Shown: piece by piece, positions 23,430 to 58,062 of the stretch | How the letters are laid out: each line of letters opens with the position of its first letter | Numbering within the stretch: position 1 is the first letter of the stretch | Assembly: GCA_964597035.1 (NCBI GenBank) | Contig: CAZQWM010000008.1 | Span: forward strand, 12,679 to 76,678 | Source of the DNA: an uncultured Pirellulales bacterium | Lineage (GTDB): Bacteria > Planctomycetota > Phycisphaerae > Sedimentisphaerales > Anaerobacaceae | Length of the DNA stretch: 64,000 bases | Reading direction: 5' to 3' | Position numbers and translations under genes: made by a program | Notes under the pieces: model-generated | Seen by the model: only the letters and a program-made list of their open reading frames with translations | Databases searched by the model: none | Told to the model about the DNA's origin: nothing

Positions 23430-23807
23430 ATGGATGGCGTGAACCTCATATTGACGACGCCCGTTATGCCGCCAACACTGCTCGAAAAGATAGCGGCTGA
23501 CGGACTTAACGGTATCGCACGTAAGACCGGTTCGTCTGAAGCAGATACCGCGAAAACAGAAAAGCTGGCAAAAGACTTTGAGTCGGTCCTGCTGACAAAG
23601 CTGTTCGATGAAATGAAGGAAACCGTCGGTAACTGGGGTTTCGAGGAGGATGCTGCGTCAGGGCAGGTGCAGGGATTGTTCTGGCTTTACCTCGCACGTG
23701 ACGTTGCGGACAAGGGCGGCCTCGGATTGTGGAAAGACCTACAGCAGTTCTTTAACGACCTGCAAAATCAAAATCAATCCCCACAATCGCTGGATGAGAG
23801 TTTATGA
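23430..23807 (+). CDS. flgJ: rod-binding protein (FlgJ N-terminal-domain type, no muramidase domain)
   Basis: AKDFESVLLTKLFDEMKETV fits the FlgJ rod-binding domain motif. The ORF is only 125 aa, with no glycoside-hydrolase part. Confidence 0.8.
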   Translation: MDGVNLILTTPVMPPTLLEKIAADGLNGIARKTGSSEADTAKTEKLAKDFESVLLTKLFDEMKETVGNWGFEEDAASGQVQGLFWLYLARDVADKGGLGLWKDLQQFFNDLQNQNQSPQSLDESL

Positions 23808-26340: not shown

Positions 26341-27528
26341 ATGAGCGGCATACTTAACAGCATATACAACAACGTCAGCTTCGCCCTTGCACGGCATTCA
26401 GACGCCCTTACCCGGCTGCAGGAACAGGTCTCAACCGGCTCTCGGATAAATCGTCCGTCGGACGACCCGTCGGCTGCGTATCATATACTCACGCTCAATA
26501 CCGAACAGAGTTCGCTCGAAAATTATATCCAGAAGCTGTCCGACACAATGAGCACGCTTGAGGTCAGCTCGTCTGTTCTCCAGCAAATGAGTTCGGTCAT
26601 CAGCCAGGCAAGGGTTAGTGTCACCCAGATTGCCAGCGGTGTTTACGACGAAGACGGGCGCCAAAGGGCTGCCGAGGCGATTGACGATGTGCTTGAGCAA
26701 CTGGTTCAGCTCGCCAATACAAAACATAACGGTTGCTACCTCTTTGGCGGAGCAAATACCTCTCAGGCCCCGTACGTTGTCGAGCGCACTGATGGCGAAA
26801 TCACCTCCGTCAGTTATCAGGGCAGTCTGGACCAGCGCAACGTCGATGTTGCTCCCGGCGTAACGTCAGCCGCGTATTATGTGGGTGAGGACCTGTTTCG
26901 CTCCTCGCAGCGGTCCACGCCCGAATTCAGCGGCATCACCGGTGCCGCTGCCGGTACGGGAACCTCCAATGTCACCGGAGACGTCTGGCTGACGGTAACA
27001 TTCGACGGCTCGAACTATCAAATTTCAATAGACGACGGTGCCACCTTCGTGACCGTTCCCTCAGGTGGAGACGCAAATCAGCAGGTAACGGATTCCCGAA
27101 CCGGAAAGGTCCTTTACGTTGATACGACCGGGATAGACTCTACCGGCGTCGAGCTTGTTCGTGTCCCCGGGACATACGATATTTTCAGCACGCTAATCAG
27201 TATCCGCGATATACTCAGAAACGACAGGGACCTGTCGGACCAGCAGCTAAACCAGCTTCACAGCGACTCGATGACAGCACTTGAGGAAATAGGGAATCTC
27301 GTCACTCAGAAACAGGTTTCGGTGGGGGCAAAAGTAGGATTCCTCAGTCAGCTCAATGACAGTCTCGAAAGCGTAAAGTACGACGCCGAAGACGAGGTGA
27401 GCCGCCTGGAAGAAGCGGACATTGCCCAGATTGCCATAGACCTGTCGCGTCACGAATTGCTTTACGAGATGTCACTGTCGGTTGCCGGCAAGCTTATGTC
27501 CTTGTCGCTGCTTGATTTCATTGAATAA
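26341..27528 (+). CDS. flgL: hook-associated protein 3 FlgL
   Basis: Flagellin-like N-terminus (LTRLQEQVSTGSRINRPSDDPSAA) and C-terminus (RLEEADIAQIAIDLSRHELLYEMSLSVAGKLMSLSLLDF), in the position after flgK. Confidence 0.85.
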   Translation: MSGILNSIYNNVSFALARHSDALTRLQEQVSTGSRINRPSDDPSAAYHILTLNTEQSSLENYIQKLSDTMSTLEVSSSVLQQMSSVISQARVSVTQIASGVYDEDGRQRAAEAIDDVLEQLVQLANTKHNGCYLFGGANTSQAPYVVERTDGEITSVSYQGSLDQRNVDVAPGVTSAAYYVGEDLFRSSQRSTPEFSGITGAAAGTGTSNVTGDVWLTVTFDGSNYQISIDDGATFVTVPSGGDANQQVTDSRTGKVLYVDTTGIDSTGVELVRVPGTYDIFSTLISIRDILRNDRDLSDQQLNQLHSDSMTALEEIGNLVTQKQVSVGAKVGFLSQLNDSLESVKYDAEDEVSRLEEADIAQIAIDLSRHELLYEMSLSVAGKLMSLSLLDFIE

Positions 27529-27658: not shown

Positions 27659-27674
27659 GGGCACGCCGTTTGCA
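27659..27674 (+). promoter_or_regulatory. sigma54-type promoter variant (GGGCAC-N5-TTGCA)
   Basis: Reads GGGCACGCCGTTTGCA. The GG and GC dinucleotides have the canonical spacing. It lies about 80 nt upstream of the ATG at 27755, the first gene of the glycosylation island. Confidence 0.5.
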
Positions 27675-27754
27675 TCGTTTTACGGCGTCAAACCGGGTGC
27701 ATAAAGTCGGTGCACCTGTGTTTTGTTGAAGGTCAGATTAGGGAGCGAAAGTTA

Positions 27755-29188
27755 ATGGAAAACACCAATAATTACTACCAGGAGGGCCTCAAGCTGGCCG
27801 AAGCCGGCCGGCACAAAGAGGCCCTGGAGTGTATGCAGTTGCACCTGAATTCTTCCCCTGACGACGCCCAGGCGATAAACGATGCCGGGGCGATTCTGCA
27901 CTGCCTTGGACGGTCCGAAGAGGCGATAGAATACTTCCGAAGGGCAAGGATTCTCGTCCCGGATTCTGCGGAGATACTCTGGAATCTCGCGGAGGCCTGC
28001 CTGGCCGTTGGAAATGCAAAACACGCCGCCGAGCTTTTCGATGATATGGCGCGCAAGGGTATTCTAAATGCCGATGTTCTCAACAGGACGGCAAACGTCT
28101 TCCTCGACCAGGGCCGCGCGGGCGATGCCATCGAAATGCTCCTTCGTTCGTTACAGGTCTCGCCCAACCAGGAGCTGCTTACGCCTATGCTGAAGGTCAT
28201 ACGAACTAAAAGGCCGAAGGTCGCGTTTTTTTGCGGCGTGAAAGGGGACGTGAAGTTCCTTTCGGACATTTACAGCTTCATCGAGCAGCGGTTCCCGGTC
28301 GAATTTTGTGAAAGCTCCGATGTCAACCGGATACGTGAGGTGATGCAGTCCAGTGATATATGCTGGTTCGAATGGTGCACCGGTATCGTTGCCGCCGCAT
28401 CGAAGCTGCCTAAGGTCTCTAAAAATATTGTTCGCCTGCACCGTTTCGAGGCCTACAGCGACTGGCCGATGAAGACAAACTGGGAGAATATCGATACGCT
28501 TATTACCGTGGGTAACTCCTTCGTAAAGGATGCTCTGTTGCGACAGGTCCCGGCTATCGAAGCTCACACCAGTCTCGTTACAATTCCCAATGGCGTAAAT
28601 CTCGAAAAGTTCAATTTTGGCGAAAAACCGCGAGGCAAAAACATCGCCTGTATCGGCTATCTGAATGTGAGAAAGAATCCGATGTTCCTGCTGCAGTGCA
28701 TGCAAAAGCTGCACTATATAGACCCGCAATACAAGCTGTTTTTCGCCGGAGTTTTCCAGGACGCGGCACTTGAGCAGTATATCCGCCATATGGTCAAAGC
28801 GCTCGACCTGTCTGACGTGGTGTTCTTCGATGGCTGGCGAGACGATGTCAGTGGCTGGCTTGCGGATAAACACTTTATAGTATCCGCCAGCATATCGGAA
28901 AGTCAGGGAATGGGTATTTTGGAGGGGATGGCCTGTGGGCTTAAGCCCGTTGTTCACAATTTCCCCGGCGCTGAGCAGATACTGCCCCCAGAGTTTCTTT
29001 TCAACATCGCCGAGGAGTTCTGCGGGCAGATTTGTTCGGATTCTTACCAGCCGCAGCGATATCGGGCGTTCGTTGAAGAAAAGTATTCGCTTAAGCAACA
29101 GCTAAGCGAAATCAACAAGCTCTTTTTGCGCTTCGGGGCCGAAATAGACGCCCGCAAATCTGCCGTAACTTGTGCTGCTGGAACGTAG
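27755..29188 (+). CDS. TPR-domain + GT-B (GT4-like) glycosyltransferase, FlmG-like architecture
   Basis: N-terminal TPRs (YYQEGLKLAEAGRHKEALECMQLHLNSSPDDAQAINDAGAILHCLGRSEEAIEYFRRA...). C-terminal GT1/GT4-type E-x7-E region (SASISESQGMGILEGMACGLKPVVHNFPGAEQIL). ATG at 27755 with GGGAG 10 nt upstream. Confidence 0.8.
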   Translation: MENTNNYYQEGLKLAEAGRHKEALECMQLHLNSSPDDAQAINDAGAILHCLGRSEEAIEYFRRARILVPDSAEILWNLAEACLAVGNAKHAAELFDDMARKGILNADVLNRTANVFLDQGRAGDAIEMLLRSLQVSPNQELLTPMLKVIRTKRPKVAFFCGVKGDVKFLSDIYSFIEQRFPVEFCESSDVNRIREVMQSSDICWFEWCTGIVAAASKLPKVSKNIVRLHRFEAYSDWPMKTNWENIDTLITVGNSFVKDALLRQVPAIEAHTSLVTIPNGVNLEKFNFGEKPRGKNIACIGYLNVRKNPMFLLQCMQKLHYIDPQYKLFFAGVFQDAALEQYIRHMVKALDLSDVVFFDGWRDDVSGWLADKHFIVSASISESQGMGILEGMACGLKPVVHNFPGAEQILPPEFLFNIAEEFCGQICSDSYQPQRYRAFVEEKYSLKQQLSEINKLFLRFGAEIDARKSAVTCAAGT

Positions 29189-29195
29189 CCCCCAA

Positions 29196-30806
29196 ATGAG
29201 CCGGACGAGCGAAACCAAAAATGGACCGATGGTTAGTGTCCTTGTGCCGACGTTCAACAGGCCCTTGTATCTGGCACAGGCACTTGATTCCGCCGTGCGC
29301 CAGACCTATGCCAATCTGCAAATCATAGTCATAAACGACGGCGGCAGTGACGTCACAAACATAGTTGAATCGTTTAACGACCCACGAATCCTGTTCATAA
29401 ATAAAAATCAAAATTGCGGCAAGGCGGCTTCGCTCAACGTCGCCCTCGAACACGCCGGGGGAAAATACGTGGCTTATCTCGATGACGACGACATCTACTA
29501 TCCGCATCATATTGAAACGCTTGTTGACACCCTGGAGAATCATACCGACTGCGGAGTTGCTTATACCGACCTCTATAAAACATATTACAGACCTGCTCCG
29601 GACGGAAGGAGAATCGCACTGAGCAAAGTCGTCAAGGTCAGCAGAGACTTCGACCGATTCCTTATGCTGTATTACAACCACGTCCTGCACGTAAGCTGTC
29701 TTCATCGTAGGGACCTGCTCGATAAGACGGGGCCTTATAACGAGACGCTCAACGTTCTGATTGACTGGGATATGACACGTCGGCTGGCCTTTTTCTCCGA
29801 TTTCTGTCACGTTCATCAAATTACCGGCGAATACTTTCAGTCCATCGGCGAAAGTGACAGGATATCAATTCAAAAGCGAAAGGACGAAAAAGAATACATC
29901 CGCAACGTGATGACTATTCGCACGACAAGGCCGGCCAGGCCCTGGCCTATGCTCGGGGATTTATCCATAATCTGCACCGCCGACCGCCTCAATCGTCAAA
30001 CAGCCCTTACAATCGGTCTTATTTGCAGACATACTTTCTATCCCAACAAGTTGTATTTGACACTGCCGGGCGAGGATATAGCTCGCCTGAGCACCGATGT
30101 ATCGAATATCGTTACAGTGCCTGTCGACCCGGCCGCAACGCAGCTTCAGCGCATTGACAGGGCGCTTGCCGATTGCGACGCTGACTTCGTAGCCGTGGTC
30201 CCGCCGGATTTTCCAATTCGCGATATGTGGCTGGAGGATTCTCTCTACGCTCTGCTCAACACATCGAATGCTTCTGAGGCGTTTGAGCTTGAGGATTCCA
30301 CGCCTGCCTGTCGTGCGGTAGTTGCGAAAAGAGAACATCTGCAGATCGCTCGCTCCGGATACCCGAATTTACCCATTGAGCAAGGTCTTGTGGCCGCGGG
30401 CGTCGGCCTGCGTCGTCTGCGGCCTGAAGAGATTCCATTCCAGTTTGACACGCTGCTTCAACAGGCACACGAAAACGAAAAGCAGGGCGACTGGAAACAA
30501 GCCGCTAAAATCTATGAGTTCATTGCTGAACATCATCAGAATCAGTTATGGATGAAATCACAGGCTGCTGCCGCCCTGTTTAACGCCGGGGATTTTGGCA
30601 GGGCGACCGAGCTTATCTCGTGGGTAAACAGCCGGCGCCCGACCGTGGATACGCTGATGCTGGAGGCACGGCTTAGACGGCGGGAAAGAGATTTCAAATC
30701 GGCCTTGGTGCTGCTCAATAGGGCCGAAGATATATTAACCTGCCACCTGTCGCCTGAAATTATTGAAGAGCAACAGGCCGCACATACAAACAGCAAACGT
30801 AAATAG
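29196..30806 (+). CDS. GT2 glycosyltransferase with C-terminal TPR-like domain
   Basis: VSVLVPTFNRPLYLAQALDSAVRQTYANLQIIVINDGGSD...YLDDDDIYYPHH is a classic GT-A/GT2 N-terminus with a DxD motif. The C-terminal ~130 aa are TPR-like (GDWKQAAKIYEFIAEHHQN...AAALFNAGDFGRA). Confidence 0.85.
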   Translation: MSRTSETKNGPMVSVLVPTFNRPLYLAQALDSAVRQTYANLQIIVINDGGSDVTNIVESFNDPRILFINKNQNCGKAASLNVALEHAGGKYVAYLDDDDIYYPHHIETLVDTLENHTDCGVAYTDLYKTYYRPAPDGRRIALSKVVKVSRDFDRFLMLYYNHVLHVSCLHRRDLLDKTGPYNETLNVLIDWDMTRRLAFFSDFCHVHQITGEYFQSIGESDRISIQKRKDEKEYIRNVMTIRTTRPARPWPMLGDLSIICTADRLNRQTALTIGLICRHTFYPNKLYLTLPGEDIARLSTDVSNIVTVPVDPAATQLQRIDRALADCDADFVAVVPPDFPIRDMWLEDSLYALLNTSNASEAFELEDSTPACRAVVAKREHLQIARSGYPNLPIEQGLVAAGVGLRRLRPEEIPFQFDTLLQQAHENEKQGDWKQAAKIYEFIAEHHQNQLWMKSQAAAALFNAGDFGRATELISWVNSRRPTVDTLMLEARLRRRERDFKSALVLLNRAEDILTCHLSPEIIEEQQAAHTNSKRK

Positions 30807-30817
30807 GAATCGGCAAA

Positions 30818-31480
30818 ATGTCTGAAAAGCAAACCACCGCAACCGATACTACGCAAAACACAATTGTCGAACAGCCCAATTCGACTCAGCACTATGAGTT
30901 GTTGATGGAGCTGGCTGACTGTCTGACGAGTGTCGGTAAATATGAAGAAGCGCAGCAGCACTACGAGAAGGCGACTTCGCTCGACCCGGATGCTGCGGGA
31001 CCTTACCTCGGCCTGGGTGTTGTCGCCCTGCAGAAAAACCTGCCCGAAGACGCTGCGATTGCCTTCAAGGTTGCCTGCCGGCTTGACCCGGCCTGTGCCA
31101 GGGCCTATGCTGGCCTGGCTATTATCGCGCAACAGCGAGCGCACTACACGGAGGCCTTCCAGATGTATCTTAAATGCCTTGAGCTTGAAAACGACAATCT
31201 GACCGCGCTGCTCGGACTGTTTCAGACATCCTGCCAGATGGGTTCGTTTGAGAAGATAATCCACTACCTTCGTGCGTATCTGAAGATGCATCCCGGCGAT
31301 ACATCGGTTATGTTCGCCCTGGCTGCTTTGTATATGAAAGACGGTCGGCTTGACGAATCCCAAAACCTCCTTCGTGACGTTCTTGCACTACAGCCGGACC
31401 ACAAAGATGCGGCAAACCTGCTCGAAGAGCTTGAACGCGGACCCGCGGAGAAGGCTCAGCCCGGAGTCAACGGCAAATGA
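30818..31480 (+). CDS. TPR-repeat protein
   Basis: 220 aa of consecutive TPRs (GKYEEAQQHYEKATSLDPDAAGPYLGLGVVALQKNLPEDAAIAFKVACRLDPACARAYAGLAII...). Confidence 0.8.
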   Translation: MSEKQTTATDTTQNTIVEQPNSTQHYELLMELADCLTSVGKYEEAQQHYEKATSLDPDAAGPYLGLGVVALQKNLPEDAAIAFKVACRLDPACARAYAGLAIIAQQRAHYTEAFQMYLKCLELENDNLTALLGLFQTSCQMGSFEKIIHYLRAYLKMHPGDTSVMFALAALYMKDGRLDESQNLLRDVLALQPDHKDAANLLEELERGPAEKAQPGVNGK

Positions 31481-31794
31481 GTGTAGAAGAAGAGATGCAA
31501 CTGCTGACTCAACTTACCGAGCTGCTCGAAAAACAGCTCGACCGGGCTCGGCGGGGAAGCTTCACGGATATGGAGCGGTTGGCTGCAAAGTGCGAACCGC
31601 TTGTAGAGAAAATAACGCAAGCCCGACTGCTTGAAAGGCCGGAATACAAAGTCAGCCGGGAGCATCTTGCTGAGCTTTATCATCAGCTTCAGCTTGTGCT
31701 TTCGGCGCAAAAAAACGTTACTGCTGAAAAACTTGGCTCGATTCGCAAAAGTAAGCGCGTTGTCTCGGCCTACCGTGACAATGCGCACCGCTGA
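31477..31794 (+). CDS. small helical protein, FlgN/FliT-like chaperone candidate
   Basis: 105-aa all-helical ORF (LLTQLTELLEKQLDRARRGSFTDMERLAAKCEPLVEKI) whose ATG overlaps the TPR gene stop (ATGA). The resemblance to FlgN-type chaperones is in pattern only. Confidence 0.45.
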   Translation: MSVEEEMQLLTQLTELLEKQLDRARRGSFTDMERLAAKCEPLVEKITQARLLERPEYKVSREHLAELYHQLQLVLSAQKNVTAEKLGSIRKSKRVVSAYRDNAHR

Positions 31795-31800
31795 TTTGAT

Positions 31801-33198
31801 ATGCAGCATAATAAGCCCAATGTCGTTGTTGTATTAGTTGATGCCCTCAGGCCTGACCACCTCTCGTGTTATGGCTATGGCAGACCGACCGGCTCAAGGC
31901 TCAATGAATTTGCAGAACAATCGGTCCTGTTTACGTCGGCTTTTTCCGCATCATCCTGTACGGTCAGCTCCATTCCTTCTATTATCACCGGGCTTTATCC
32001 GTCGTTGCACCGCACGGGTGTGGATGGGAATCTTACGACTCTTTCCGCCGATGTCCCCACCATCGCCGAGGTGCTGAACAGGTCCGGCTATTGCACGGTG
32101 GGATTCAATACCAATCCTTTGGTTTGCGGCAAACATGGTTACAGCAGGGGGTATAGTTGCTATTACGACCTTTTTCCAGAAAAGACTAATATTAAAATAC
32201 CGGCCACCATCGAGTATTCCTGGCAGGGTGTAACTAAAAGGGAGAATGTCGAATTTACTCAGCCGTATGTCTGCAGCGGGGATTTAACAAAGCAGGTCGG
32301 CGCCTGGCTGGACGCAAATGAACGGCAGCCGTTCTTTATGTGGTTGCATTATATGGACACCCACGCGCCATATCTTCCAAGACAACCTCATTTTTCCCGG
32401 TTCTCGGCCGACAAACCCAAAGCAGAGGTTGTTCGCTTTGTCAGACAGCTCAACAGCATATACGACGTACTTCACCGGGACCAGGACCGGATAAGCCCGC
32501 TGGACAGGCAATTGATAATGGACTGTTACGATTCGGAGATAGCGTATTTCGATAGCATGTTTGGCAGGTTGTTGGATTGTTTCCAAAAGCACGGCCTGCT
32601 CGAAAATACCCTCTTGATTGTTACTGCGGACCACGGCGAGGAGTTCTGGGAGCATCAACGATGGGGACATTATGTGAGAATGTTCGATATTAACCTCCGT
32701 GTGCCCCTGATTTTGAGATACCCGCAGTTGCATTCATCGAACAAAATATTATCGCAGCAGGTTCGCAATATCGACATCTTCCCGACTATCCTGGAGATTT
32801 TAAATCTCAACAGCGATTGCCGGATGTCCGGGGTTTCGCTGTTGCCTTGTATCCGCGACGAATATATGGCGGCGCCTTTGCCTGTCGTGGCGGAAGGCGG
32901 GGGGGTGATTCAACTTTTAACGAAAACAAATACTGACCGTATGTATGCACTAAGGACGCCGGAGTGGAAGTATATAAAGAACACCACTCATCCTCAGTCG
33001 CAGCTCTATGACTTGCAAAATGACCCGCAGGAGACCAGCGACCTGTCGGCTGAACCATTCGCTGACGCCACTATGAAGGCCCTTGACCGCCGGTTAACGG
33101 ATTTGTTGAGTTCCGGTGGCGAACGAAAAAATAGTATGCCGCAGCAGGAGATGGATTCCAAGATTATCGCACAGCTCGCACAGCTTGGATACGCATAA
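31801..33198 (+). CDS. sulfatase-family / alkaline-phosphatase-superfamily enzyme (no signal peptide, no C-x-P-x-R motif seen)
   Basis: PNVVVVLVDALRPDHLSCYGY, ...SIPSIITGLYPSLH and LIVTADHGEEFWEH are hallmark segments of the sulfatase/AP fold. No N-terminal signal sequence is present. Confidence 0.85.
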   Translation: MQHNKPNVVVVLVDALRPDHLSCYGYGRPTGSRLNEFAEQSVLFTSAFSASSCTVSSIPSIITGLYPSLHRTGVDGNLTTLSADVPTIAEVLNRSGYCTVGFNTNPLVCGKHGYSRGYSCYYDLFPEKTNIKIPATIEYSWQGVTKRENVEFTQPYVCSGDLTKQVGAWLDANERQPFFMWLHYMDTHAPYLPRQPHFSRFSADKPKAEVVRFVRQLNSIYDVLHRDQDRISPLDRQLIMDCYDSEIAYFDSMFGRLLDCFQKHGLLENTLLIVTADHGEEFWEHQRWGHYVRMFDINLRVPLILRYPQLHSSNKILSQQVRNIDIFPTILEILNLNSDCRMSGVSLLPCIRDEYMAAPLPVVAEGGGVIQLLTKTNTDRMYALRTPEWKYIKNTTHPQSQLYDLQNDPQETSDLSAEPFADATMKALDRRLTDLLSSGGERKNSMPQQEMDSKIIAQLAQLGYA

Positions 33199-33285
33199 AC
33201 GCCCGAGGGGTTTTTACGTGGCACAAGCAGGACGGTAGGGGATGGTTGTGCAACTGGCGGGCGAGCTGACGAGATATAGTAATTT

Positions 33286-36200
33286 GTGAAAATAGCTATG
33301 CACCGAAAGATAAGAGTATTGTTCTCAATTGAGACGGCCGACCCCTGGATTCTCCGCGTTTACAAATCCTTTTACGATGGCTTGGCATCTCTGCCTTATG
33401 AGCTGTTTTGCACGGCTTGTGACGTGAAGGAACCGGCCGGACAGCTTGATGCATACAATATTATCGATTATGCAAAGCTCCCGGATTTGGCACCGGCCTT
33501 GGCTGCCTGTGGACCTGTGGGCACGCCATCCCGGCGTCTGCTCGAACTGGCGCCCGGCTTCGCGCTTTGGGATTCACCACAGCGCCTGCTCGAACGCTTC
33601 GACAGATTCAGGTCGGCTTTTCATATTGTTCAGCCGGACTTGGTCATTGTCTGGAATGGAATGGCGGACATACGACGAATGATAAGGATTTTCCTGTCGG
33701 AGCAGAGCACACCCTTTTTCTATGCCGAAAAGGGTGTGTTGCCTGACAGTTGGTATATAGACGAGGCGGGTATAAATGCCTGTTGTTCGCTTAGGCCGTC
33801 TGTGGCAAACGCCGGCATACCTGAATCTCAGCGGGACAGAGTCGAGCAGTACCTGCAGAATGTCATTAGTTCCGGCTCAAGCGCGTGGCAGCAGCCGGCC
33901 GGAATCAGTGGTGATGCTCTTAGGCGTAAACTCTCTATCGCGGTGAATTCGCCGGTTATTTTCTTCCCGGGTTGGGTGGATGAAGATACCAGCATCACTG
34001 AGCTCTCATGCTTTAAGACCGTGGCCGAGGCGGTCGGTGCCGTCGCCGATGCGATGCCCTCCGGCGCAACCTTGATTGTCAAACCGCATCCAAAATCAAA
34101 AACCGAAAGTCGTCAGCAGCTCCAGGAACTCGCACCGCAATCGCCGAACCTGCGTATCGTAACTGATGCCGATATCTGGGACCTGATTGACGTTGCAGAT
34201 TTGGTTGTATCGATAAACTCCACGGTTGCCTTCGAGTCACTGCTTGGAAAACGTAAATTGCTTCTGTTGGGGGATAATATTTTATCAAAGGTTGGTCTCG
34301 TCGAGAAAGTAAATGTCGCTGAGCTGAAAGACGCGTTAAAGGCGTCTCTTGAGGGTTCGTTCGACAACCGGGTGAATTACTCACGAGTGCTTTCGTTTGT
34401 GAAGTTTTTGCTTGATGATTACTACCTGTTTACAGGATGCAGCTCGGTCCCTCAGTCGGTCTTGTCGAGAATTGACTCGAAGGCAATAAAAGCTTCAGAC
34501 AAAACTTTCAGCGTGGACAAACTCAAAGAAATACTCTACCCGCACGAGAACACGATTTTGCCGTCCGGGCCAGTGACAGGTGAATCGTTTGACCCTGCTG
34601 TTGCTTGTTTTCGCAAGGCAGTTGACCGGTTTGCTGCCGGCAATTTCCAGCAGGCAGTGGAATTGATGGAGCAATACCGCAGGGCAATTGATTACACAAA
34701 GCTGCCACGGACGACTAAAACCCGGAACAAGTCCTCTGATGTTCAGGTCTCGGTTATTATTGTTACGTATAACAGAACTGAAGAGCTGAAAAACTGTCTC
34801 GAATCGCTCAGCAAACAGAACGAGGAGAATTTTGAAGTAGTTATTGTAGATAACGGCGGCACCAACCTCAACGAGCTTGGCAACGACTTCGACCAGTATA
34901 TCAAATGTCCGATGAACTTCAGTCTTTCGGAAGGGCGTAACATCGGCGCCTTCTTTGCTAAGGGGGCGATACTTGCCTTCCTCGACGACGACGCTGTTGT
35001 TGGGCCGGATTATATAAGTTCGATAAGGACGGCCTTTAAAACTTATGACATCTGCGGCCTTCGCGGCAGGGCGCTGCCCAAAAGCAGCCAAAATACGAAT
35101 AATGGCACGAAGGGTTACGACCACGGTCCGAATCCCTTCCCAACGGTCTGCGACCTTGAAGGGGGCTCCGCATTTTCAAGAGAGATATTCCTGTCGATTA
35201 ATGGGATGGACCCATTGCTGTTCGGCCATGAGGGCTATGACCTGACTTACAGAATCGCAAAAAACTCCGATATGCTGAATAGTATTATTTACTGGCCTTA
35301 TACCATCATTTATCATGATGCTCCATCTACCGATTCGCAGGGACAAAAAGACCAGAGATACAGTTTTAACGAGCAGTATTTGCGCTTCAAGCACAGTGAC
35401 CACATCTTCTCCCTGCGGGATGAGATTGAGAAGTGTTATCTGCCCGGCCCTCCCGGCGATGCCTGTCCCGAGCAACCAGTGGTGGGCGAAATCGAACCAC
35501 ATCGAGGGGCCGGCAACGTGACTGCACAGCCATCCCATACCGGCCCGGCTGCGGCGCCGCAGAACGATGTCCCCGTCGCACTCGTAGTTTACAACAGGCC
35601 AAAACACACGCTCGAAGTCTTGAAATCGCTCAGAGGGCACAATGTTCAAAACCTATATATATTCTGCGATGCGCCGAAGCGACCTGAGCACGAACAGGAC
35701 GTCTCGCTGGTCAGACGACTTGTTCACAGCATAAACTGGACAACGCCTGAAATAATCGAGCGTGAGCAAAACTTCGGCCTGGCGAAAAGTATAACCAGTG
35801 CGACCGACTTTGTATTCGAACGGCACGACCGCCTGATTTTACTCGAAGATGACTGTGTTCCTCAGCAGCACTTCTTCGATTTTATGTGCACCTGCCTCGA
35901 AAAATACAAGGACAATCCGAAAGTTTTCGGTGTCGCTGGTTACTCGATATCGATGCCCGATGAACTCCTCCGTGAATATCCTTACGACCTTTACTTTTGC
36001 CCGCGCATTTGCAGCTGGGGCTGGGCCACCTGGAAAAGGGCCTGGAAATATTATGACAGGGACTTGCAAAAACTCGTTGAAGAGGCCAATGAAAGAGGAA
36101 TCGACCTCGCCCAGGGCGGGAGCGAAGTCCAGGTTTTTATCGAAAAATTCTTAAGAGGTCGGCTAAACGACGTCTGGACGCTGAACTGGATTCTTACCGT

Positions 36201-39200
36201 TTATCTTAATAATGGTTATTACGCCTATCCTACAAGTTCTCACATCAAAAACGTAGGTATGGACGGCAGCGGACTGCATTGCAGAAAGACTACGAAGTAC
36301 GACAGCGTCTGCGCCGATGCAAAACCTCATCGCTATCCGGACCGGATTATACTCAACGACCAGTTTCTTGAAAGGTTCAGAAAGCACTTTGATTTCGACG
36401 AAGAACAAAGCCGAAAGGCAGCGGTTTTTCTAAGCACTATCAAAAAACATCAGACACAGCGATTAACTTCTGAAAAGCCTGCGTTATCCGCGAACAAGCC
36501 TGCAACGCCGAGCCGGTATCTCGTTTCGGCGATAGTTTCGACCTACAATTCGCAGGAGTCAATCCGCGGCTGCATCGAAAACCTCGAAAGCCAGACAATA
36601 GCCGACAAGCTTGAAATCATTGTTGTCGATAGCGGCTCTCAGCAAAACGAGCAGGCCGTCGTCGCCGAGCTACAGCAAAAATACGATAACATTAAGTATA
36701 TAAAAACCGCACAACGTGAGACCATTTATGCCGCGTGGAACAAGGCCGTCAAAGCCGCAACCGGCAAATACATCACAAATGCCAACACCGACGACAGACG
36801 TTACGAGGATGCCCTTGAAATAATGGCTAATGCCCTTGACCGGGACCCTGATGGAGTCCTGGTTTACGGCGACAACGAAATTATTGACGCCGAAACGGGT
36901 GCCGTTGTTGGCAAAACCACGAGGAGTGATTTCACCATGGCCCGTCTGCTTGACCATTGCTTCGTCGGCCCCCAGCCGATGTGGCGAAGGGAGCTCCACG
37001 ACGAGTTTGGTTACTTTGATGAATCATTCTTCTCGGCGGGCGATTACGAATTCTGGCTCAGAATCGCCCAGAAATATGAGTTTATGTATCTCACTATGGT
37101 CCTTGGCCAGTATCAGCGCAGGTCCGACAGCATCGAACACAGCAACGGCGGCTGGGTGGGCAGGTTTGAGACGGCGCTTATCAAAAAGGCCTATCAATAT
37201 GCCAGCATTAACTCTATATTCATCGGCAGTGCCGGCTTGACCGGCACGTCGCCTTTTACTGATTGGTGCGAGACGAATATCGTAAAAAGGCAAACCGCCC
37301 AAATATTAACGGGCCGGCCGGTCGAACCGGTCGAAAAGGTTGATGACAACCGAAATCCCGACACTGTGCCTTTGCTTTCCATAATTATAGCGACATTCAA
37401 CCGCACCGATGGTTTGCTCAAATGCATCGGTGCTCTCGCCGGGCAAAGCGAATCTGATTTCGAGCTGATAGTCGTAAACAACGGCTTAACCATAATCCCG
37501 CTCGCGGATAACCGCCGGTATCCTTTCGGCGTATGCTGTATGGACCTAAAAAGCAATTATGGCCCGTCGCTGGCACGAAACATCGGGGCAGGGTTTGCGA
37601 AGGCGCCTTATATTGCTTTTCTGGATGACGATGCCATAGCCGATGAGAATTTTGTCCGAAATATCCTGAGGCACTTCAACGAAACTGACATATCCGGCCT
37701 CAGGGGCAAAGCCCTCCCCGAATCAGGCGACCGCAAGCCGGACCATTACGACCTCGGTGACGAGCCGATGCCTTTTCTTGTGGACCTCGAAGGTAACTGC
37801 GCCTTCAAAAAAGATGTTTTACTTGAAGTAGGCGGTTTCGACGAATTCCTGTTCCACACCGAAGGCCAGGAGCTTTCTTACAGAATCTTCAGGCATCAAA
37901 AAGAAAGCTTAAACGCCCTGATGTATTTTCCCGATGTTGTAATTTATCACGACCCGCGGAACGTGGACGATGCCGGCGGGATTGAAAAAACCCTTCGCTC
38001 GCAGGTAATGGCTGAGATGCTTGCACGCAAGGCCCACGGCATCAGAAAATACATCAGGTTCTTCAGTAATTTCTACCCCGCCAACAGGGCTACTCTCGAG
38101 AGTAACTTTTTCCGCCTTATGGTCAACGTGTCGTTTCTCGAAAAAAATTACCCCGACCTTGCCTTGTTCTGGGCCTTGAAGGCAATTGCCATTGAGCCGG
38201 ACAACGTTCCTTGTCGCTATGCCGTCGGCCGGATGAATGTGCGACTCGGCCGGTTCGATGTCGCCGAGAGATTCCTCGAACCCTTGAGTCGGCAGTTATA
38301 TATAGCCGTTGCACAGGATAATATTTCCTCGCTCGGCGAATCCTTCAAAGATGAAAAATCAGCAACACTTTGCTACATCGATGCCGCTATGAAGCTGGCC
38401 TTCTCCTATGCACAACAGGGTAAATCACGCCAGGCCGCCGCCGCTTATTCGCAGATTCTCAACTGCTCATTCATTACGCTGTCGGACCAGCAGAAAGATT
38501 GCATAAGCAAAGAAATCGACAGATTGACCGAGTCGCCTGTTACCGTCATGCCTCAGCAACAAGATGCCAGTGTTACTGATTCCTTGTCCCAGAAGGGGGC
38601 TTACCTCGTTTCAGCCATCGTCTCAACATACAACGCGCAAGAGTTTATTCGCGGCTGTCTCGAGGACCTCGAACGTCAGACAATAGCCGACCAAACTGAA
38701 ATTATCGTTGTCAATAGCGGCTCTCAGCAAAACGATGAGCAAATCGTAAAAGAGTTCCAGAAAAGATACAGCAACATCGTCTATATCAAAACAGAGCATC
38801 GCGAGCCCTTGTACTCTGCCTGGAACCGGGCCATCAAAGCTGCCTCAGGCCGGTTTCTAACGAATGCCAACACCGATGACCGGCACCGAAAAGATGCGAT
38901 GGAGATTATGGCCGACACACTCACCGCAAATCCTGATGTTGCCTTGGTCTATGGCGACCAGATTGTTACCGACACACCGAACGGCACCTTCGAGAATCAT
39001 CACGCCGTCGAAATGACCAAAAGACCGGAATTCAGTTGGCAGCGTTTGCTCTTCGGCTGCTGTGTCGGGTCCCAGCCGATGTGGAGAAAGTCACTGCACG
39101 ACGAGTTCGCCGGTTTCGACGAGTCACTCACTTGTGCCGCCGACTGGGACTTCTGGCTTAAAGTCGCCAAAAAGCACAGCTTCAAGCACATACCTCAATT

Positions 39201-40308
39201 CCTCGGTCTTTACTATCGCAACAAGGATGGTATCGAGCACGGCCGAAAAATTCACAGCTTGTATGAGCGATATGCCGTTGGCAGACGATACGGCAACCCC
39301 TATATATCCGTTATCCCGCTCTATCAGGCACCGGACAATCCGCTTGTCTCAATTGTGATTACCGCCTACAACTCCGCCGGCTATATCGCGAGAGCAATCG
39401 AAAGCGTACTGATTCAAAATTACAGAAACTTCGAGCTGATTGTTGTCGACGACGGCTCTACTGACAACACCGCCGACATTGTTCGCAGCTTCACAAACGA
39501 GCCGATAAAATATTTCTTCAAGGAAAATGGCGGTGTCGCCTCCGCACGTAACTTCGGGCTGAAAAAATCCACCGGCTCATTCATAGTTATGCTCGACAGT
39601 GACGATATGATGACGCCTAATTACCTCGCCGAACACCTCAAAGGTTTTGTTCAGTACCCCCAGGCGGATATGGTCTACTGCGACGAATATCTCATCGACG
39701 AACAGGACCAGCCAATCCGTGTAATCCACAGGCCTCAGTACTCAGACTCGCAGGCAATCATAGCCGATATGTTCCACTCCGGCTGGCCGGTCGTGCATTT
39801 CAAAACCTGCATCAAAAGAAGTGTCTTCGACAAAATAGGACTTTACGACGAACGTCTGATTGTCGCTGAAGATTACGATATGATGAGACGTTTCATAAAA
39901 CAAGGCCTCAAGATGCATCGCCTGCCGGAGGCGCTTTACCTGCGCCGTCTGAGGCAGGAGAGTCTCTCGAAAACATATGATACCGCCAAGGCAAAGAGTC
40001 ATTTCGATGTCGTTCATAGATTTACCGAGACATTCACCCCGGAGCAATTGTTTCCCGATGTCGTTTGGAACAAGCTGCCGGCTGGCCAAAAGCCGTTACT
40101 GGCCAAATGCAAGGCCGCACTTGTCTATCTTGATATTGGCCAGAAATACCTTGGTTCTAATGCTGCTGATTATGCGGCTGTGGCCTTCGATTTGGCCTGC
40201 ACCCAACTGGATGATTGCTGCAGAATCGAGCCGGCAAATCAGAACATCATAAATCTAAGGGGAAAATGCCGGTCCATACGCGACAGGCACCTGCAGCCCG
40301 TTGCCTGA
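33286..40308 (+). CDS. 2,340-aa multi-domain glycosyltransferase (KpsS/KpsC-like + 5x GT2 + GnT-I-like + TPR-like spacer)
   Basis: One uninterrupted ORF with GTG at 33286 or ATG at 33298. Modules read from the translation are listed under the finding at 33286-40308. Approximate nt starts of the GT-A modules: 34744, 35569, 36517, 37368, 38602, 39343. Confidence 0.9.
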   Translation: MKIAMHRKIRVLFSIETADPWILRVYKSFYDGLASLPYELFCTACDVKEPAGQLDAYNIIDYAKLPDLAPALAACGPVGTPSRRLLELAPGFALWDSPQRLLERFDRFRSAFHIVQPDLVIVWNGMADIRRMIRIFLSEQSTPFFYAEKGVLPDSWYIDEAGINACCSLRPSVANAGIPESQRDRVEQYLQNVISSGSSAWQQPAGISGDALRRKLSIAVNSPVIFFPGWVDEDTSITELSCFKTVAEAVGAVADAMPSGATLIVKPHPKSKTESRQQLQELAPQSPNLRIVTDADIWDLIDVADLVVSINSTVAFESLLGKRKLLLLGDNILSKVGLVEKVNVAELKDALKASLEGSFDNRVNYSRVLSFVKFLLDDYYLFTGCSSVPQSVLSRIDSKAIKASDKTFSVDKLKEILYPHENTILPSGPVTGESFDPAVACFRKAVDRFAAGNFQQAVELMEQYRRAIDYTKLPRTTKTRNKSSDVQVSVIIVTYNRTEELKNCLESLSKQNEENFEVVIVDNGGTNLNELGNDFDQYIKCPMNFSLSEGRNIGAFFAKGAILAFLDDDAVVGPDYISSIRTAFKTYDICGLRGRALPKSSQNTNNGTKGYDHGPNPFPTVCDLEGGSAFSREIFLSINGMDPLLFGHEGYDLTYRIAKNSDMLNSIIYWPYTIIYHDAPSTDSQGQKDQRYSFNEQYLRFKHSDHIFSLRDEIEKCYLPGPPGDACPEQPVVGEIEPHRGAGNVTAQPSHTGPAAAPQNDVPVALVVYNRPKHTLEVLKSLRGHNVQNLYIFCDAPKRPEHEQDVSLVRRLVHSINWTTPEIIEREQNFGLAKSITSATDFVFERHDRLILLEDDCVPQQHFFDFMCTCLEKYKDNPKVFGVAGYSISMPDELLREYPYDLYFCPRICSWGWATWKRAWKYYDRDLQKLVEEANERGIDLAQGGSEVQVFIEKFLRGRLNDVWTLNWILTVYLNNGYYAYPTSSHIKNVGMDGSGLHCRKTTKYDSVCADAKPHRYPDRIILNDQFLERFRKHFDFDEEQSRKAAVFLSTIKKHQTQRLTSEKPALSANKPATPSRYLVSAIVSTYNSQESIRGCIENLESQTIADKLEIIVVDSGSQQNEQAVVAELQQKYDNIKYIKTAQRETIYAAWNKAVKAATGKYITNANTDDRRYEDALEIMANALDRDPDGVLVYGDNEIIDAETGAVVGKTTRSDFTMARLLDHCFVGPQPMWRRELHDEFGYFDESFFSAGDYEFWLRIAQKYEFMYLTMVLGQYQRRSDSIEHSNGGWVGRFETALIKKAYQYASINSIFIGSAGLTGTSPFTDWCETNIVKRQTAQILTGRPVEPVEKVDDNRNPDTVPLLSIIIATFNRTDGLLKCIGALAGQSESDFELIVVNNGLTIIPLADNRRYPFGVCCMDLKSNYGPSLARNIGAGFAKAPYIAFLDDDAIADENFVRNILRHFNETDISGLRGKALPESGDRKPDHYDLGDEPMPFLVDLEGNCAFKKDVLLEVGGFDEFLFHTEGQELSYRIFRHQKESLNALMYFPDVVIYHDPRNVDDAGGIEKTLRSQVMAEMLARKAHGIRKYIRFFSNFYPANRATLESNFFRLMVNVSFLEKNYPDLALFWALKAIAIEPDNVPCRYAVGRMNVRLGRFDVAERFLEPLSRQLYIAVAQDNISSLGESFKDEKSATLCYIDAAMKLAFSYAQQGKSRQAAAAYSQILNCSFITLSDQQKDCISKEIDRLTESPVTVMPQQQDASVTDSLSQKGAYLVSAIVSTYNAQEFIRGCLEDLERQTIADQTEIIVVNSGSQQNDEQIVKEFQKRYSNIVYIKTEHREPLYSAWNRAIKAASGRFLTNANTDDRHRKDAMEIMADTLTANPDVALVYGDQIVTDTPNGTFENHHAVEMTKRPEFSWQRLLFGCCVGSQPMWRKSLHDEFAGFDESLTCAADWDFWLKVAKKHSFKHIPQFLGLYYRNKDGIEHGRKIHSLYERYAVGRRYGNPYISVIPLYQAPDNPLVSIVITAYNSAGYIARAIESVLIQNYRNFELIVVDDGSTDNTADIVRSFTNEPIKYFFKENGGVASARNFGLKKSTGSFIVMLDSDDMMTPNYLAEHLKGFVQYPQADMVYCDEYLIDEQDQPIRVIHRPQYSDSQAIIADMFHSGWPVVHFKTCIKRSVFDKIGLYDERLIVAEDYDMMRRFIKQGLKMHRLPEALYLRRLRQESLSKTYDTAKAKSHFDVVHRFTETFTPEQLFPDVVWNKLPAGQKPLLAKCKAALVYLDIGQKYLGSNAADYAAVAFDLACTQLDDCCRIEPANQNIINLRGKCRSIRDRHLQPVA
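36517..37200 (+). repeat. internal paralogous GT2 module (copy 1) of the giant ORF
   Basis: YLVSAIVSTYNSQESIRGCIENLESQTIADKLEIIVVDSGSQQNE...NANTDDRR...GPQPMWRRELHDEFGYFDE. The nt string 36622-36650 recurs at 38707-38735 with one mismatch, at an offset of 2085 nt. Confidence 0.85.
38602..39290 (+). repeat. internal paralogous GT2 module (copy 2) of the giant ORF
   Basis: YLVSAIVSTYNAQEFIRGCLEDLERQTIADQTEIIVVNSGSQQND...NANTDDRH...GSQPMWRKSLHDEFAGFDE. It is collinear with copy 1 at both protein and nt level. Confidence 0.85.
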
Positions 40309-40357: not shown

Positions 40358-40384
40358 TAAACAACTAGTGACTTCTCTCGATAA
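40358..40384 (+). promoter_or_regulatory. sigma28-type promoter (TAAA-N15-CTCGATAA)
   Basis: TAAA at 40358-40361, a 15-nt spacer, then CTCGATAA at 40377-40384, against the consensus TAAA-N15-GCCGATAA. It lies 83 nt upstream of the fliD ATG. Confidence 0.65.
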
Positions 40385-40466: not shown

Positions 40467-42809
40467 ATGTCCGTCTTGCGTCTGCCGGGTTTATATACAG
40501 GTATCGACACGGAAACATTGATTTCACAGCTTCTGGCCATTGAGAGCCGGACGATGAATCTTTACCAGCAGCGCCTCTCGCAATGGGAAGAGAAGAAAGA
40601 TGCACTCGGCACTATCGAAACTAGGTTAAGCACACTTGTCTCTGCCGTTCGTGCCTTGTCGGATGCCCAGCAGCTCCGGGCTTTCGGTGTCGCGTCCAGT
40701 GACCCTGATATAGTCACCGCTCAGGCAACCAGCGATGCCTTCGAGGGCAACCACAACGTTGTCATCGACCGTCTCGCAACCGCCGACCGCTGGGTTCATA
40801 CCGCCGGCTTTGAATACGCCGAGGATTACGTGGACGCGGGAACCTTTATCTATTCATACAACGGCAAGGAAACTGTTATTACAACCACCGACACGACGAC
40901 GCTGGAGGGCCTTGTCGGCCTGATTAACAACGATGCCGACAACCCGGGCGTCACCGCGTCTTTACTGCATTATGCCAATTCTTATCATCTTATCCTTAAC
41001 GGCAACGACGCCGGAGGCGATTATCGAATCTCAATCAATTCGGGCTCTACCGAGGTCTTGCAGGCCGACACTGCCTTCACACGCAACTCGGACAACGCCG
41101 CTTTAAGCACTCACATCACGCAGCTCGACCAGTTCGGCGACAATCCCCTCGAAGGCGGGGAGGTCATAGAGATAAAAGGAACCGACCGCTACGGCAACGA
41201 CATAACGCAGGTGGACCTTGAGCTGACTGCAAACACAAAGCTCAGCCATCTCATTGACAAAATCAACCAGGCCTTTGATGGAAACGTAAAGGCCACGCTC
41301 GAAAACGGCAAAATTGTTGTCACCGACGCTTTTTCAGATGACAGCGAACTTTCAATCAGTTTGACTTATAACGCAAATGATTCTGCTGCCATGTTGTCGC
41401 TGCCGACGATTGAACTCCTGACCGACGGCGGCACCCCTGCAACGCTGGATGGCTTCAGTCTTGCCGATTTCACAAGAACACAGGCGGCACAGGACTCCAA
41501 AATCAAAATCGATGGTTACCCCTTTCAGGATGCCGTTTCGGAGGTCCAGCAAATCGAGCATACATCCGCCGTTACCAGCGGAACGTTCACGCTTGGCTAT
41601 GGCGGTTTTATCACCGATGCTATCGCTTATAACGCCGACATTGCTACAATCCAGGCCGCTCTCGATGCCCTGCCCAATGTCAATGCAGGCGACATAGTTG
41701 TCGAGGGTGACGCTCTGAATACAAGCGGCACCTTGACTTTCACCTTCAATGACACCCTTGGCGATGTCAGTATGATACTAATTGACTCCTCGGGTCTCAG
41801 CGAGACGCTTGCCGTCACCGAGCAGACAGAAGGCGTCGATGAATACATAAGCAGAAGCTCCAACACAATAGACGATGTCATTTACGGATTGACGCTGAAC
41901 CTGCACGATGTCACCAGCGAAAGCGGCGAAAGTATCACGCTCACAAGAAACACCGAATCGGTGAAGCAGAAGCTGCTCTCGATGATAGACGCCTATAATT
42001 CCGTCATTACCTATATAAAAGAGAAAACCGGCTATAATGACGTCCTCAAGACGGCCGGCATTCTTATGGGCGATTATGTCGTCGGCACAATAAAAACCCA
42101 GCTTTCTATGCCGCTGATTAGACAGACGTCCGGATTCATTCAGGATGTCGACTCGTTCCTTACGCCTGGCCAGATCGGCCTGGAGCTCGGCAGTGACGGT
42201 ATGCTCTCGCTTGACACCAACGCCTTTGAAAAAGCAATTGCAGAGGACTATACGGGCGTTCTTGCCGTCATCGGTGCGGCCAAAACCGGAAGCTCCGACA
42301 GCAACACCATTCGCTTCTACCATGCCAGTAGCAGTTACACCACCGCCGGAACTTATGATGTCGAAGTAACTGTAGGCGGAGGCGCTATAACCGGCGCGAG
42401 AATGAAATTATCGACCGAATCGAGTTGGAACGATGCGACGTACTCCGGCAACGTTGTCACCGGAGACAGCTCATTCGACGAAAACGGCAATCCCGTATAT
42501 CCGGAAAACAGCTTGCAGTTCAGTGTGGATTTGAGTCAGGACGGAACCTACACCGCCACGGTCAGGGTCAAGCAGGGTTTTGCCGGTGCCATTGAAGATG
42601 CCCTCGATAGAATGCTCAAGGCCTCTACTGGCTCAATTGATATCGACCAGAAGCATATAGACGATACAATCAAGCTGTTGGAGGACAGAATCGAGGCCGA
42701 AAAATATCGGGTAGACCAGAAGGAACAACGCCTTATTGGGCAGTTTGCTCGTCTTGAAAAGACGCTGACGCTTTGGCAGAACCAAATGGCGGCCCTCGGT
42801 TTGAGCTAA
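40467..42809 (+). CDS. fliD: flagellar filament capping protein FliD
   Basis: N-terminal GLYTGIDTETLISQLLAIESRTMNLYQQRLSQWEEKKDAL and C-terminal KYRVDQKEQRLIGQFARLEKTLTLWQNQMAAL are FliD N- and C-terminal domains. At 780 aa it is unusually long. Confidence 0.9.
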   Translation: MSVLRLPGLYTGIDTETLISQLLAIESRTMNLYQQRLSQWEEKKDALGTIETRLSTLVSAVRALSDAQQLRAFGVASSDPDIVTAQATSDAFEGNHNVVIDRLATADRWVHTAGFEYAEDYVDAGTFIYSYNGKETVITTTDTTTLEGLVGLINNDADNPGVTASLLHYANSYHLILNGNDAGGDYRISINSGSTEVLQADTAFTRNSDNAALSTHITQLDQFGDNPLEGGEVIEIKGTDRYGNDITQVDLELTANTKLSHLIDKINQAFDGNVKATLENGKIVVTDAFSDDSELSISLTYNANDSAAMLSLPTIELLTDGGTPATLDGFSLADFTRTQAAQDSKIKIDGYPFQDAVSEVQQIEHTSAVTSGTFTLGYGGFITDAIAYNADIATIQAALDALPNVNAGDIVVEGDALNTSGTLTFTFNDTLGDVSMILIDSSGLSETLAVTEQTEGVDEYISRSSNTIDDVIYGLTLNLHDVTSESGESITLTRNTESVKQKLLSMIDAYNSVITYIKEKTGYNDVLKTAGILMGDYVVGTIKTQLSMPLIRQTSGFIQDVDSFLTPGQIGLELGSDGMLSLDTNAFEKAIAEDYTGVLAVIGAAKTGSSDSNTIRFYHASSSYTTAGTYDVEVTVGGGAITGARMKLSTESSWNDATYSGNVVTGDSSFDENGNPVYPENSLQFSVDLSQDGTYTATVRVKQGFAGAIEDALDRMLKASTGSIDIDQKHIDDTIKLLEDRIEAEKYRVDQKEQRLIGQFARLEKTLTLWQNQMAALGLS

Positions 42810-58035: not shown

Positions 58036-58062
58036 TTAAGTCCCCGTTTTCATAATCGATAA
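58036..58062 (+). promoter_or_regulatory. sigma28-type promoter (TTAAG-N14/15-ATCGATAA)
   Basis: CTTAAGTCCCCGTTTTCATAATCGATAATG. The -10 core CGATAA is exact and the -35 element matches 3 of 4 positions. It lies about 125 nt upstream of the flagellin ATG. Confidence 0.6.

Follow-up and report, generated by a model that had tools for sequence, protein, structure and literature searches.

What do six co-directional open reading frames (ORFs) inserted between two flagellar structural genes contribute to the flagellum of an uncultured bacterium? This question was raised by a 64-kb flagellar gene cluster, which was analyzed over its whole length (hereafter the window, to which all window counts refer). 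The ORFs, called o1 to o6 in their order, all lie on the plus strand between flgL (26341-27528, +; Pfam Flagellin_N) and fliD (40467-42809, +; FliD_N and FliD_C), the latter coding for a filament cap protein of 780 amino acids (aa). They follow each other at distances of 40, 11, −4, 6, and 99 (or 87) nt, which confirmed the order and close spacing, including an ATGA overlap, described in the initial annotation of this DNA. The same annotation had interpreted the ORFs as a glycosylation island scaffolded by tetratricopeptide repeats (TPRs). According to our analysis, the locus probably encodes a cytoplasmic system for the O-glycosylation of flagellar proteins, which is composed of two layers: a conserved core driven by sigma-54 and a hypervariable slot specifying the glycan. 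This reading is based on gene content, conservation, promoter motifs, catalytic motifs, and the solubility of the proteins, all of which were observed.

Gene identities were taken from Pfam annotation, and the NCBIfam cut-offs served as a second family check. To sample the relatives, one genome per species was scanned with an alignment of o1; of the 198 genomes with matches, the 80 best loci were retrieved. These loci (labeled L007, L009, etc.) belong to species-level metagenome-assembled genomes (MAGs) of Planctomycetota (Phycisphaerae/Sedimentisphaerales), and their synteny was read by tblastn with the window proteins. The closest protein homologues of the window are likewise labeled as MAG Sedimentisphaerales, Phycisphaerae, or Planctomycetota. 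The comparison of gene neighborhoods, which had been suggested in the initial annotation, revealed a core that is fixed across the 80 loci and a variable slot between o4 and fliD, the latter gene forming its downstream boundary. The order flgI-x-flgN-flgK-flgL-o1-o2-o3-o4 was found in virtually all loci of sufficient length, and o1 is preceded by flgL in nearly all 80. Compared with two distant loci (L007 and L009 in the case of o3), the window shows identities of 67-68% for o1, 54-58% for o2, 68% for o3, and 41-49% for o4, while the values for FlgK, FlgL, FlgA, and the chaperone FlgN are 57-61%, 60-68%, 42-46%, and 46-51%, respectively. Of 52 loci, 24 have a 4-nt overlap between o3 and o4 and 43 have an overlap or gap of ≤7 nt there, and a 10-nt overlap joins o2 to o3 in 32 loci. 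Four minimal loci (L034, L036, L040, and L085, ~11550-11750) contain o1-o3-o4-fliD with no variable slot, and o2 is reduced in them to its first 48-50 codons. Since the minimal loci keep only these genes, o1, o3, and o4 are marked as the indispensable set. As o1-o4 are syntenic and as conserved as FlgK and FlgL, they evolve like core flagellar genes and do not constitute an island; judged by synteny and identity, they are a lineage-wide, vertically conserved core that was not acquired. The term island, originally applied to all six genes, fits o5 and o6 in the variable slot and had to be abandoned for o1-o4.

The promoter region of the core is also conserved. The promoter of the o1 operon (27659-27675, +; −24 GGCAC, −12 TTGCA) was assigned by motif match and phylogenetic footprinting, and its sigma-54 element at 27659-27674 reads GGGCACGCCGTTTGCA. 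The consensus of sigma-54 promoters is TGGCAC-N5-TTGCW, with GG at −24 and GC at −12. GGCAC-N5-TTGC occurs in four copies in the 64 kb compared with 0.86 expected, a number reached in none of 100 shuffles, and each copy precedes, at a distance of 54-95 nt, a gene that opens a flagellar operon, namely flgD(-E), o1, fliO, and flgB. Among the 80 related loci, 59 carry the exact motif at ≤300 nt before their o1 homologue, and in 12 others this site has a variant with GGTAC or GGCAT, which raises the total to about 71. Conversely, the 1.33 Mb of DNA from related loci contain 70 exact matches, of which 57 fall before o1. The sigma-54 box stands directly before o1 even in L007, where flgL is followed by an additional methyltransferase-GT9 gene. 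The consensus of the o1 promoter in the relatives, aACGGCACGgAATTTGCA, is by its sequence a textbook sigma-54 promoter with strong comparative support, and the sigma-54-type element noticed originally before the first gene is thereby upheld. Its RpoN dependence is predicted from the motif; two Sigma54_activat proteins, one of them a bacterial enhancer-binding protein with a GAFTGA motif, are encoded in the window.

In contrast to o1, fliD is preceded by a sigma-28-type promoter, TAAA-N15-CTCGATAA (40358-40384, +), which is the only exact match in the window (0.11 expected), and a motif of this type was also found before fliD in L009/L010, L034, L036, and L083. The element of the flagellin gene (58036-58062) has TTAA for TAAA; hence, of the sigma-28 elements reported originally before fliD and flagellin, the former proved exact and the latter differs by one mismatch. 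The contrast between sigma-54 before o1 and a sigma-28-type element before fliD, which had been drawn from the window alone, is supported. No convincing intrinsic terminator was detected at the flgL/o1, o5/o6, or o6/fliD junctions, thus transcriptional read-through between these genes is possible.

Two other elements were seen during the promoter searches. A one-mismatch sigma-28-type element, TAAA-N17-CTGATAA (3710-3736, −), immediately precedes fliA and hints at autoregulation; matches with one mismatch are common (10 in the window vs. 3.3 expected). A terminator-like 9-bp GC-rich hairpin with a U-run (27694-27718), located in the predicted 5′ leader of o1 between the −12 box and the start codon, was dropped as a regulatory element, since it is not conserved in the leaders of the relatives.

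The first three proteins of the core combine TPRs and glycosyltransferase (GT) domains. The 477-aa o1 (27755-29188, +) consists of an N-terminal TPR region (TPR_2, 8.7e-13; ~aa 1-145) and a C-terminal GT-B domain of GT4 type (Glycos_transf_1, 7.2e-15; aa 300-425). EX7E, the motif of GT4 retaining transferases, is present at E382-E390 and is invariant among the homologues, which are 58-76% identical and were found in >120 clusters and 80 genomes. The nearest solved GT domains are those of the GT4 BshA enzymes, although remote (E 0.002). The GT4-type EX7E domain suggests nucleoside diphosphate (NDP)-sugar donors. The next protein, o2 (29229-30806, +; start according to the gene callers, alternatives at 29172 and 29196), carries a GT2 domain (Glycos_transf_2, 4e-28) with an invariant DDD motif, a second alpha/beta domain resembling GT-A, and three TPR-like helical pairs, and it is conserved over its full length (mean column identity 56%). 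Its model was made, like that of o4, by AlphaFold2 (AF2) with an alignment of database homologues, and contains six paired helices at 407-504 with a predicted local distance difference test (pLDDT) score of ~90, which correspond to three TPR-like repeats; the best Foldseek matches were K4CP and PmHS2, polymerases with two GT-A domains. The product of o3 (30818-31480, +) is a TPR-only protein (TPR_2, 3.4e-19), translationally coupled to o4. Consequently, Pfam confirmed the domain assignments made at first for o1 (TPR plus a GT4-like domain) and o3 (TPR only), while of the GT2 plus TPR read in o2 only the GT2 part passed in Pfam, the TPR being sub-threshold there (E 0.0066) and visible in the AF2 model. 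A profile-profile comparison of the o2 C-terminus and of residues 1581-1760 of o6 with the TPR family of o3 gave ~1% probability; as this is not a valid general test for TPRs, it was set aside.

The fourth core gene, o4 (31477-31794, +), overlaps o3 by ATGA and encodes a 105-aa protein. It had been listed simply as a small helical ORF; the helices and the overlap were found as described, but a likeness to FliT had been missed. Against PF05400 (FliT), o4 scored E 1.1e-4 and 23.4 bits, which is below the cut-off of 29.5, while 14 of 45 o4 homologues matched FliT at E <0.01 (best 1.2e-6) and ~60% of the database homologues carry a precomputed PF05400 match. The AF2 model (pLDDT 89.6) gave its top TM-scores with FliT 3a7m_B (0.71/0.64), 5gna_A, and 6ch2_D. 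When the o4 profile was searched against PDB sequences, the only matches were ribosomal protein S20 and designed helical bundles, which was uninformative. The window contains flgN and fliS (59172-59531, +, after the flagellin gene), no FliT besides the FliT-like o4 was found among its Pfam-annotated proteins, and o4 occupies the FliT position, being directly upstream of fliD in the minimal loci. On the basis of sequence and model, o4 is a FliT-like candidate for either a FliD chaperone or an adaptor comparable to GlfM, a small FliS/FliT-like helical protein that bridges a flagellin glycosyltransferase and flagellin (bioRxiv 2023.12.03.569772).

These properties of o4 lead to an alternative explanation, which we consider quite doubtful, namely that the core serves the filament cap or the hook-filament junction and not flagellin. 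In that case o4 would be a true FliT, o3 would be its TPR-containing co-chaperone for FliD, which at 780 aa is unusually large, and o1 and o2 would glycosylate FliD, FlgK, or FlgL. The FliT slot of o4 in the minimal loci, the presence of FlgN and FliS with no second FliT, and the best TM-scores of the o4 model with FliT and FliT-FliD structures agree with this explanation, and so does the location of the core, which is flanked by flgL and fliD and lies 18 kb from the flagellin gene. However, flagellin is the target in the TPR-GT and Maf systems known so far, the most plausible carrier of a hypervariable glycan is an abundant, exposed filament protein, and the FliT assignment of o4 is itself sub-threshold.

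Downstream of the core, the length of the slot between o4 and fliD ranges in the relatives from 0 to >7 kb, and its content is either a giant multi-domain ORF (1,750 to >2,400 aa) or a set of ~300-aa genes. A Pfam census of 130 slot ORFs of the relatives counted 22 NAD-dependent epimerase/dehydratases, 19 RmlD, 14 GDP-mannose dehydratase, 12 methyltransferase, 10 radical SAM, eight UDP-GlcNAc 2-epimerase, and five CMP-sugar synthetase matches, and was also rich in Polysacc_synt_2 and UDP-glucose dehydrogenase. Such content is the signature of a putative cassette specifying the glycan, as is known from flagellin glycosylation islands (PMC4875605). In the genome studied here, the slot holds o5 and o6, and nucleotide-sugar genes are missing between flgL and fliD. 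Because the relatives carry such genes in the slot, their absence here characterizes this genome and not the system.

The initial annotation had noted this absence as well and had named a DegT aminotransferase gene at 60568 as the sole candidate in the window, which was confirmed. This isolated gene (60568-61692, +) scored best with PseC (344 bits, below the 423.5 cut-off) and then with LegC. No other genes of the pseudaminic or legionaminic acid (Pse/Leg) pathways were found near it, and the 556-aa ORF beside it (61769-63439, −) has no Pfam or NCBIfam match.

The larger slot gene, o6 (33298-40308, +; alternative GTG start at 33286), encodes a soluble protein of 2,336 aa, in which Pfam and segment searches identified seven GT modules. 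It was first recognized as a giant GT downstream of the sulfatase-fold ORF, and this was borne out by five GT2 domains, a Capsule_synth domain, and a GT13-like segment. The modules follow in the order KpsC/S-like, GT2, GT13-like, GT2, GT2, a weak TPR-like linker, GT2, and GT2, where the N-terminal one is Capsule_synth (KpsC/KpsS-like) and the GT13-like segment weakly resembles POMGnT1. A two-GT2 unit is duplicated, with 39% identity between residues 471-750 and 1341-1600 and 57% identity between residues 1061-1340 and 1761-2005. The same modules recur in other orders and combinations in the giant proteins of the relatives; in that of L009, for example, a methyltransferase-GT9 N-terminus replaces the KpsC-like module. 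The duplications and the recurring modules suggest module shuffling.

The other slot gene, o5 (31801-33198, +), encodes a soluble enzyme of the alkaline phosphatase superfamily (PF00884, 1.4e-50). An identical protein with the same neighbor genes is present on JGI and Logan sediment metagenome contigs; the samples that contain the contig, such as JGI 3300031654, are from salt marsh. The only close relative among the fetched loci is that of L051. Its initial designation as a sulfatase-fold enzyme is valid for the fold, but not for the catalytic site: T54-V-S-S-I aligns to the C/S-x-P-x-R of the solved sulfatases 7p24, 4upl, and 6s20, and the Cys/Ser, the Pro, and the Arg of the formylglycine motif are all missing. 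Thr54, located at the nucleophile position, is conserved in the L051 homologue, and 147 of the 149 nearest 50%-cluster representatives have Thr, while none of the 149 has C-x-P-x-R. The N-terminal metal-ligand Asp and the DHG motif are retained. A Thr nucleophile is typical of the phosphoryl-transfer members of the alkaline phosphatase superfamily. Since Thr stands in place of the formylglycine motif, o5 is not a classical sulfatase and is probably a phospho-ester enzyme, and it belongs to a large Thr-nucleophile clade whose members are probably mislabeled as sulfatases. Thus, o5 shares the PF00884 fold with the S1 formylglycine sulfatases and differs from them in the lack of C/S-x-P-x-R, while it differs from the Thr-nucleophile enzymes EptA/MCR-1 in lacking a membrane domain, and its likeness to EptA models is weak and limited to residues 3-63.

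With both layers described, an interpretation built on the initial annotation can be weighed, according to which all six genes are an acquired island and the four TPR modules bring several enzymes together in a complex on different flagellar substrates. The tight coupling of the genes, the TPR or TPR-like segments in o1, o2, o3, and, weakly, o6, and the split of sigma-54 and sigma-28 promoters between the machinery and its likely substrates are in line with it. Nevertheless, this interpretation appears improbable, as o1-o4 are vertically conserved and the GC content of the o1-o6 region is only ~2-3% below that of the neighboring genes. Of the four TPR modules, those of o1 and o3 stood up to analysis as robust, while that of o2 is seen in the model only and that of o6 is weak (E 2e-4 to 1e-3) and missing from many mosaic giant proteins of the relatives.

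No membrane segment was found in any of the six proteins (maximum Kyte-Doolittle 19-residue score 1.32 vs. 2.7-2.8 for FlhB/FliP). The idea that the genes are a surface polysaccharide cluster (capsule, exopolysaccharide, or lipopolysaccharide type) inside the flagellar region was rejected as very improbable, and a GmaR-like bifunctional regulator/glycosyltransferase is considered very improbable as well. Capsule and exopolysaccharide loci, too, typically encode GT2, GT4, and KpsC/S-like modules, and the GT2-plus-TPR layout of o2 recalls GmaR. However, the locus has neither membrane segments nor an initiating phosphoglycosyl transferase, flippase, polymerase, or (ABC) exporter, its position and promoter class are fixed in the flagellar regulon across the 80 genomes, and it is coupled to a FliT-like gene.

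Returning to the O-glycosylation of flagellar proteins by a conserved core and a variable slot, we propose the following acceptor, order of action, donors, and roles of o3 and o4. The N-terminal TPR of o1 would hold an unfolded or chaperoned flagellar substrate, to which its GT4-type GT-B domain would attach the first sugar from an NDP-sugar, and o2 would then add a second, conserved sugar. The TPR protein o3 and the FliT-like o4, made in coupled amounts, may act as a chaperone/adaptor pair that either delivers FliD or presents the substrate to the transferases. What else the glycan contains would be set by the variable slot, that is, by o5 and o6 in this genome, and as the slot contains no sugar-nucleotide genes, housekeeping donors are probably used. 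The machinery would be transcribed with the sigma-54 hook/basal-body class, and in consequence it would be in place before the sigma-28 late substrates, FliD and flagellin. The most likely acceptor is the flagellin (58187-58999, +), which at 270 aa is too short for the D2/D3 outer domains; FliD or the junction proteins could be acceptors alternatively. The flagellins of Caulobacter are similarly short and lack the D2/D3 outer domains.

Among the known systems, o1 is closest in layout to FlmG of Caulobacter crescentus and Brevundimonas (PMC7591256; bioRxiv 2022.03.25.485807), which has the same order of an N-terminal TPR and a C-terminal GT-B domain. In FlmG, the TPR binds flagellin and the GT-B domain transfers the sugar, and these two domains are enough for flagellin to be recognized and modified (PMC7591256). 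This TPR-plus-GT logic had been invoked from the start and is a fair analogy for o1, which is also encoded among flagellar genes and expressed before flagellin, the latter being predicted here from the promoters. Differences lie in the GT4-type domain of o1, in the length (477 aa vs. 596 aa of FlmG), and in the lack of a Pse/Leg pathway in cis. Flagellin glycosylation islands of Pseudomonas, Enterobacteriaceae, and Geobacillus (PMC4875605; PMC5109656) resemble the locus in having a GT block with or without sugar-nucleotide genes in the flagellar locus, in adjoining hook-associated or filament genes, and in a content that varies greatly between relatives. However, no single protein is common to all enterobacterial flagellin islands (PMC4875605), whereas here an entire order or class shares a fixed four-gene core, which has a conserved sigma-54 promoter of its own, and the variable part includes one seven-module GT protein and no sugar-synthesis genes. 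Like GlfM of the GlfM-Maf-2 system (bioRxiv 2023.12.03.569772; GlfM compared by its description) and FliT (PDB 3a7m, 6ch2), o4 is small, soluble, and all-helical, with a remote similarity of the FliS/FliT type, and it is likewise encoded in cis with flagellar glycosyltransferases, but it is coupled to a TPR-only protein. The Maf domain itself (MAF_flag10) gave no Pfam match in any island protein or o6 segment.

Several observations weigh against the proposed two-layer glycosylation system. The organism is uncultured and metagenomes are the sole source, the glycosylation of its flagellar proteins is predicted from the genes, and a literature search on flagellar glycosylation in Planctomycetes or Sedimentisphaerales returned nothing specific and no experimental evidence for the lineage. 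NCBIfam assigned no above-threshold family to any of the six proteins. The GT4-type EX7E of o1 suggests an NDP-sugar, while FlmG, with which o1 was compared by domain architecture and not by sequence, uses CMP-Pse/Leg. The mean pLDDT of the o2 model is 68 and residues 111-242 were unmodeled; in the case of o4, the FliT score is sub-threshold and the Foldseek E-values were all >0.4, none of them significant. As regards the promoter, about nine of the 80 loci have no sigma-54 box before o1, and the rpoN gene is not in the 64-kb window.

The rest of the window consists of flagellar genes in alternating blocks, as identified by Pfam. A minus-strand block contains fliA, flhA, fliM/N, and fliL, followed by two sigma-54 activators, of which the first (8145-9647) has a receiver domain and the GAFTGA motif; two TPR proteins (320 and 970 aa; 9668-13539, −), additional to those of the core, lie between the activators. 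The plus-strand block comprises flgD-flgE, a 343-aa ORF, flgF, flgG, flgA, flgH, flgI, a 125-aa ORF, flgN, flgK, flgL, o1-o6, and fliD. The 343-aa ORF (17965-18996), between flgE and flgF, has no Pfam match and a 342-aa counterpart in L009. The ORF between flgI and flgN (23430-23807; 122-128 aa), also without a Pfam match, stands where FlgJ/FlgM is usually encoded and is shared by every related locus at 38-73% identity. After fliD, a second minus-strand block carries flhB, fliR, fliP, fliO, motB, motB, motA, fliJ, fliI, fliH, fliG, fliF, and fliE, where the two consecutive MotB_plug genes next to motA (46599-48025, −) are tandem motB paralogues. The plus-strand end contains fliK, the 270-aa flagellin gene, and fliS, followed by a response regulator gene (−) and the DegT aminotransferase gene (+).

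Considering these results, the locus is a variant of the known flagellin glycosylation islands, and what is new in it is the combination of a fixed core and a swappable slot. Such islands are usually seen as strain-variable accessories, while here a fixed recognition and initiation core, with its own promoter class and a chaperone-like pair, would be joined to an exchangeable glycan cassette. The locus offers a natural system for asking how acceptor recognition stays constant while the glycan diversifies. The TPR-GT4 protein with its TPR/FliT-like pair is a candidate third flagellar GT architecture in a poorly studied, mostly uncultured phylum, and the seven-module soluble GT o6 and the Thr-type “sulfatase” o5 are candidates for enzyme discovery. 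A more far-reaching version, which we hold rather unlikely, is that the TPR-GT4 protein, the TPR protein, and the FliT-like protein form an obligatory, sigma-54-timed checkpoint complex in Phycisphaerae that couples the chaperoning and export of a late flagellar substrate to its glycosylation. This complex would represent a third class beside Maf(+GlfM) and FlmG, with megasynthase-like multi-GT proteins swapped module by module to diversify the glycan. If this were true, glycosylation would be built into the flagellar assembly of Phycisphaerae and would not be an optional ornament.

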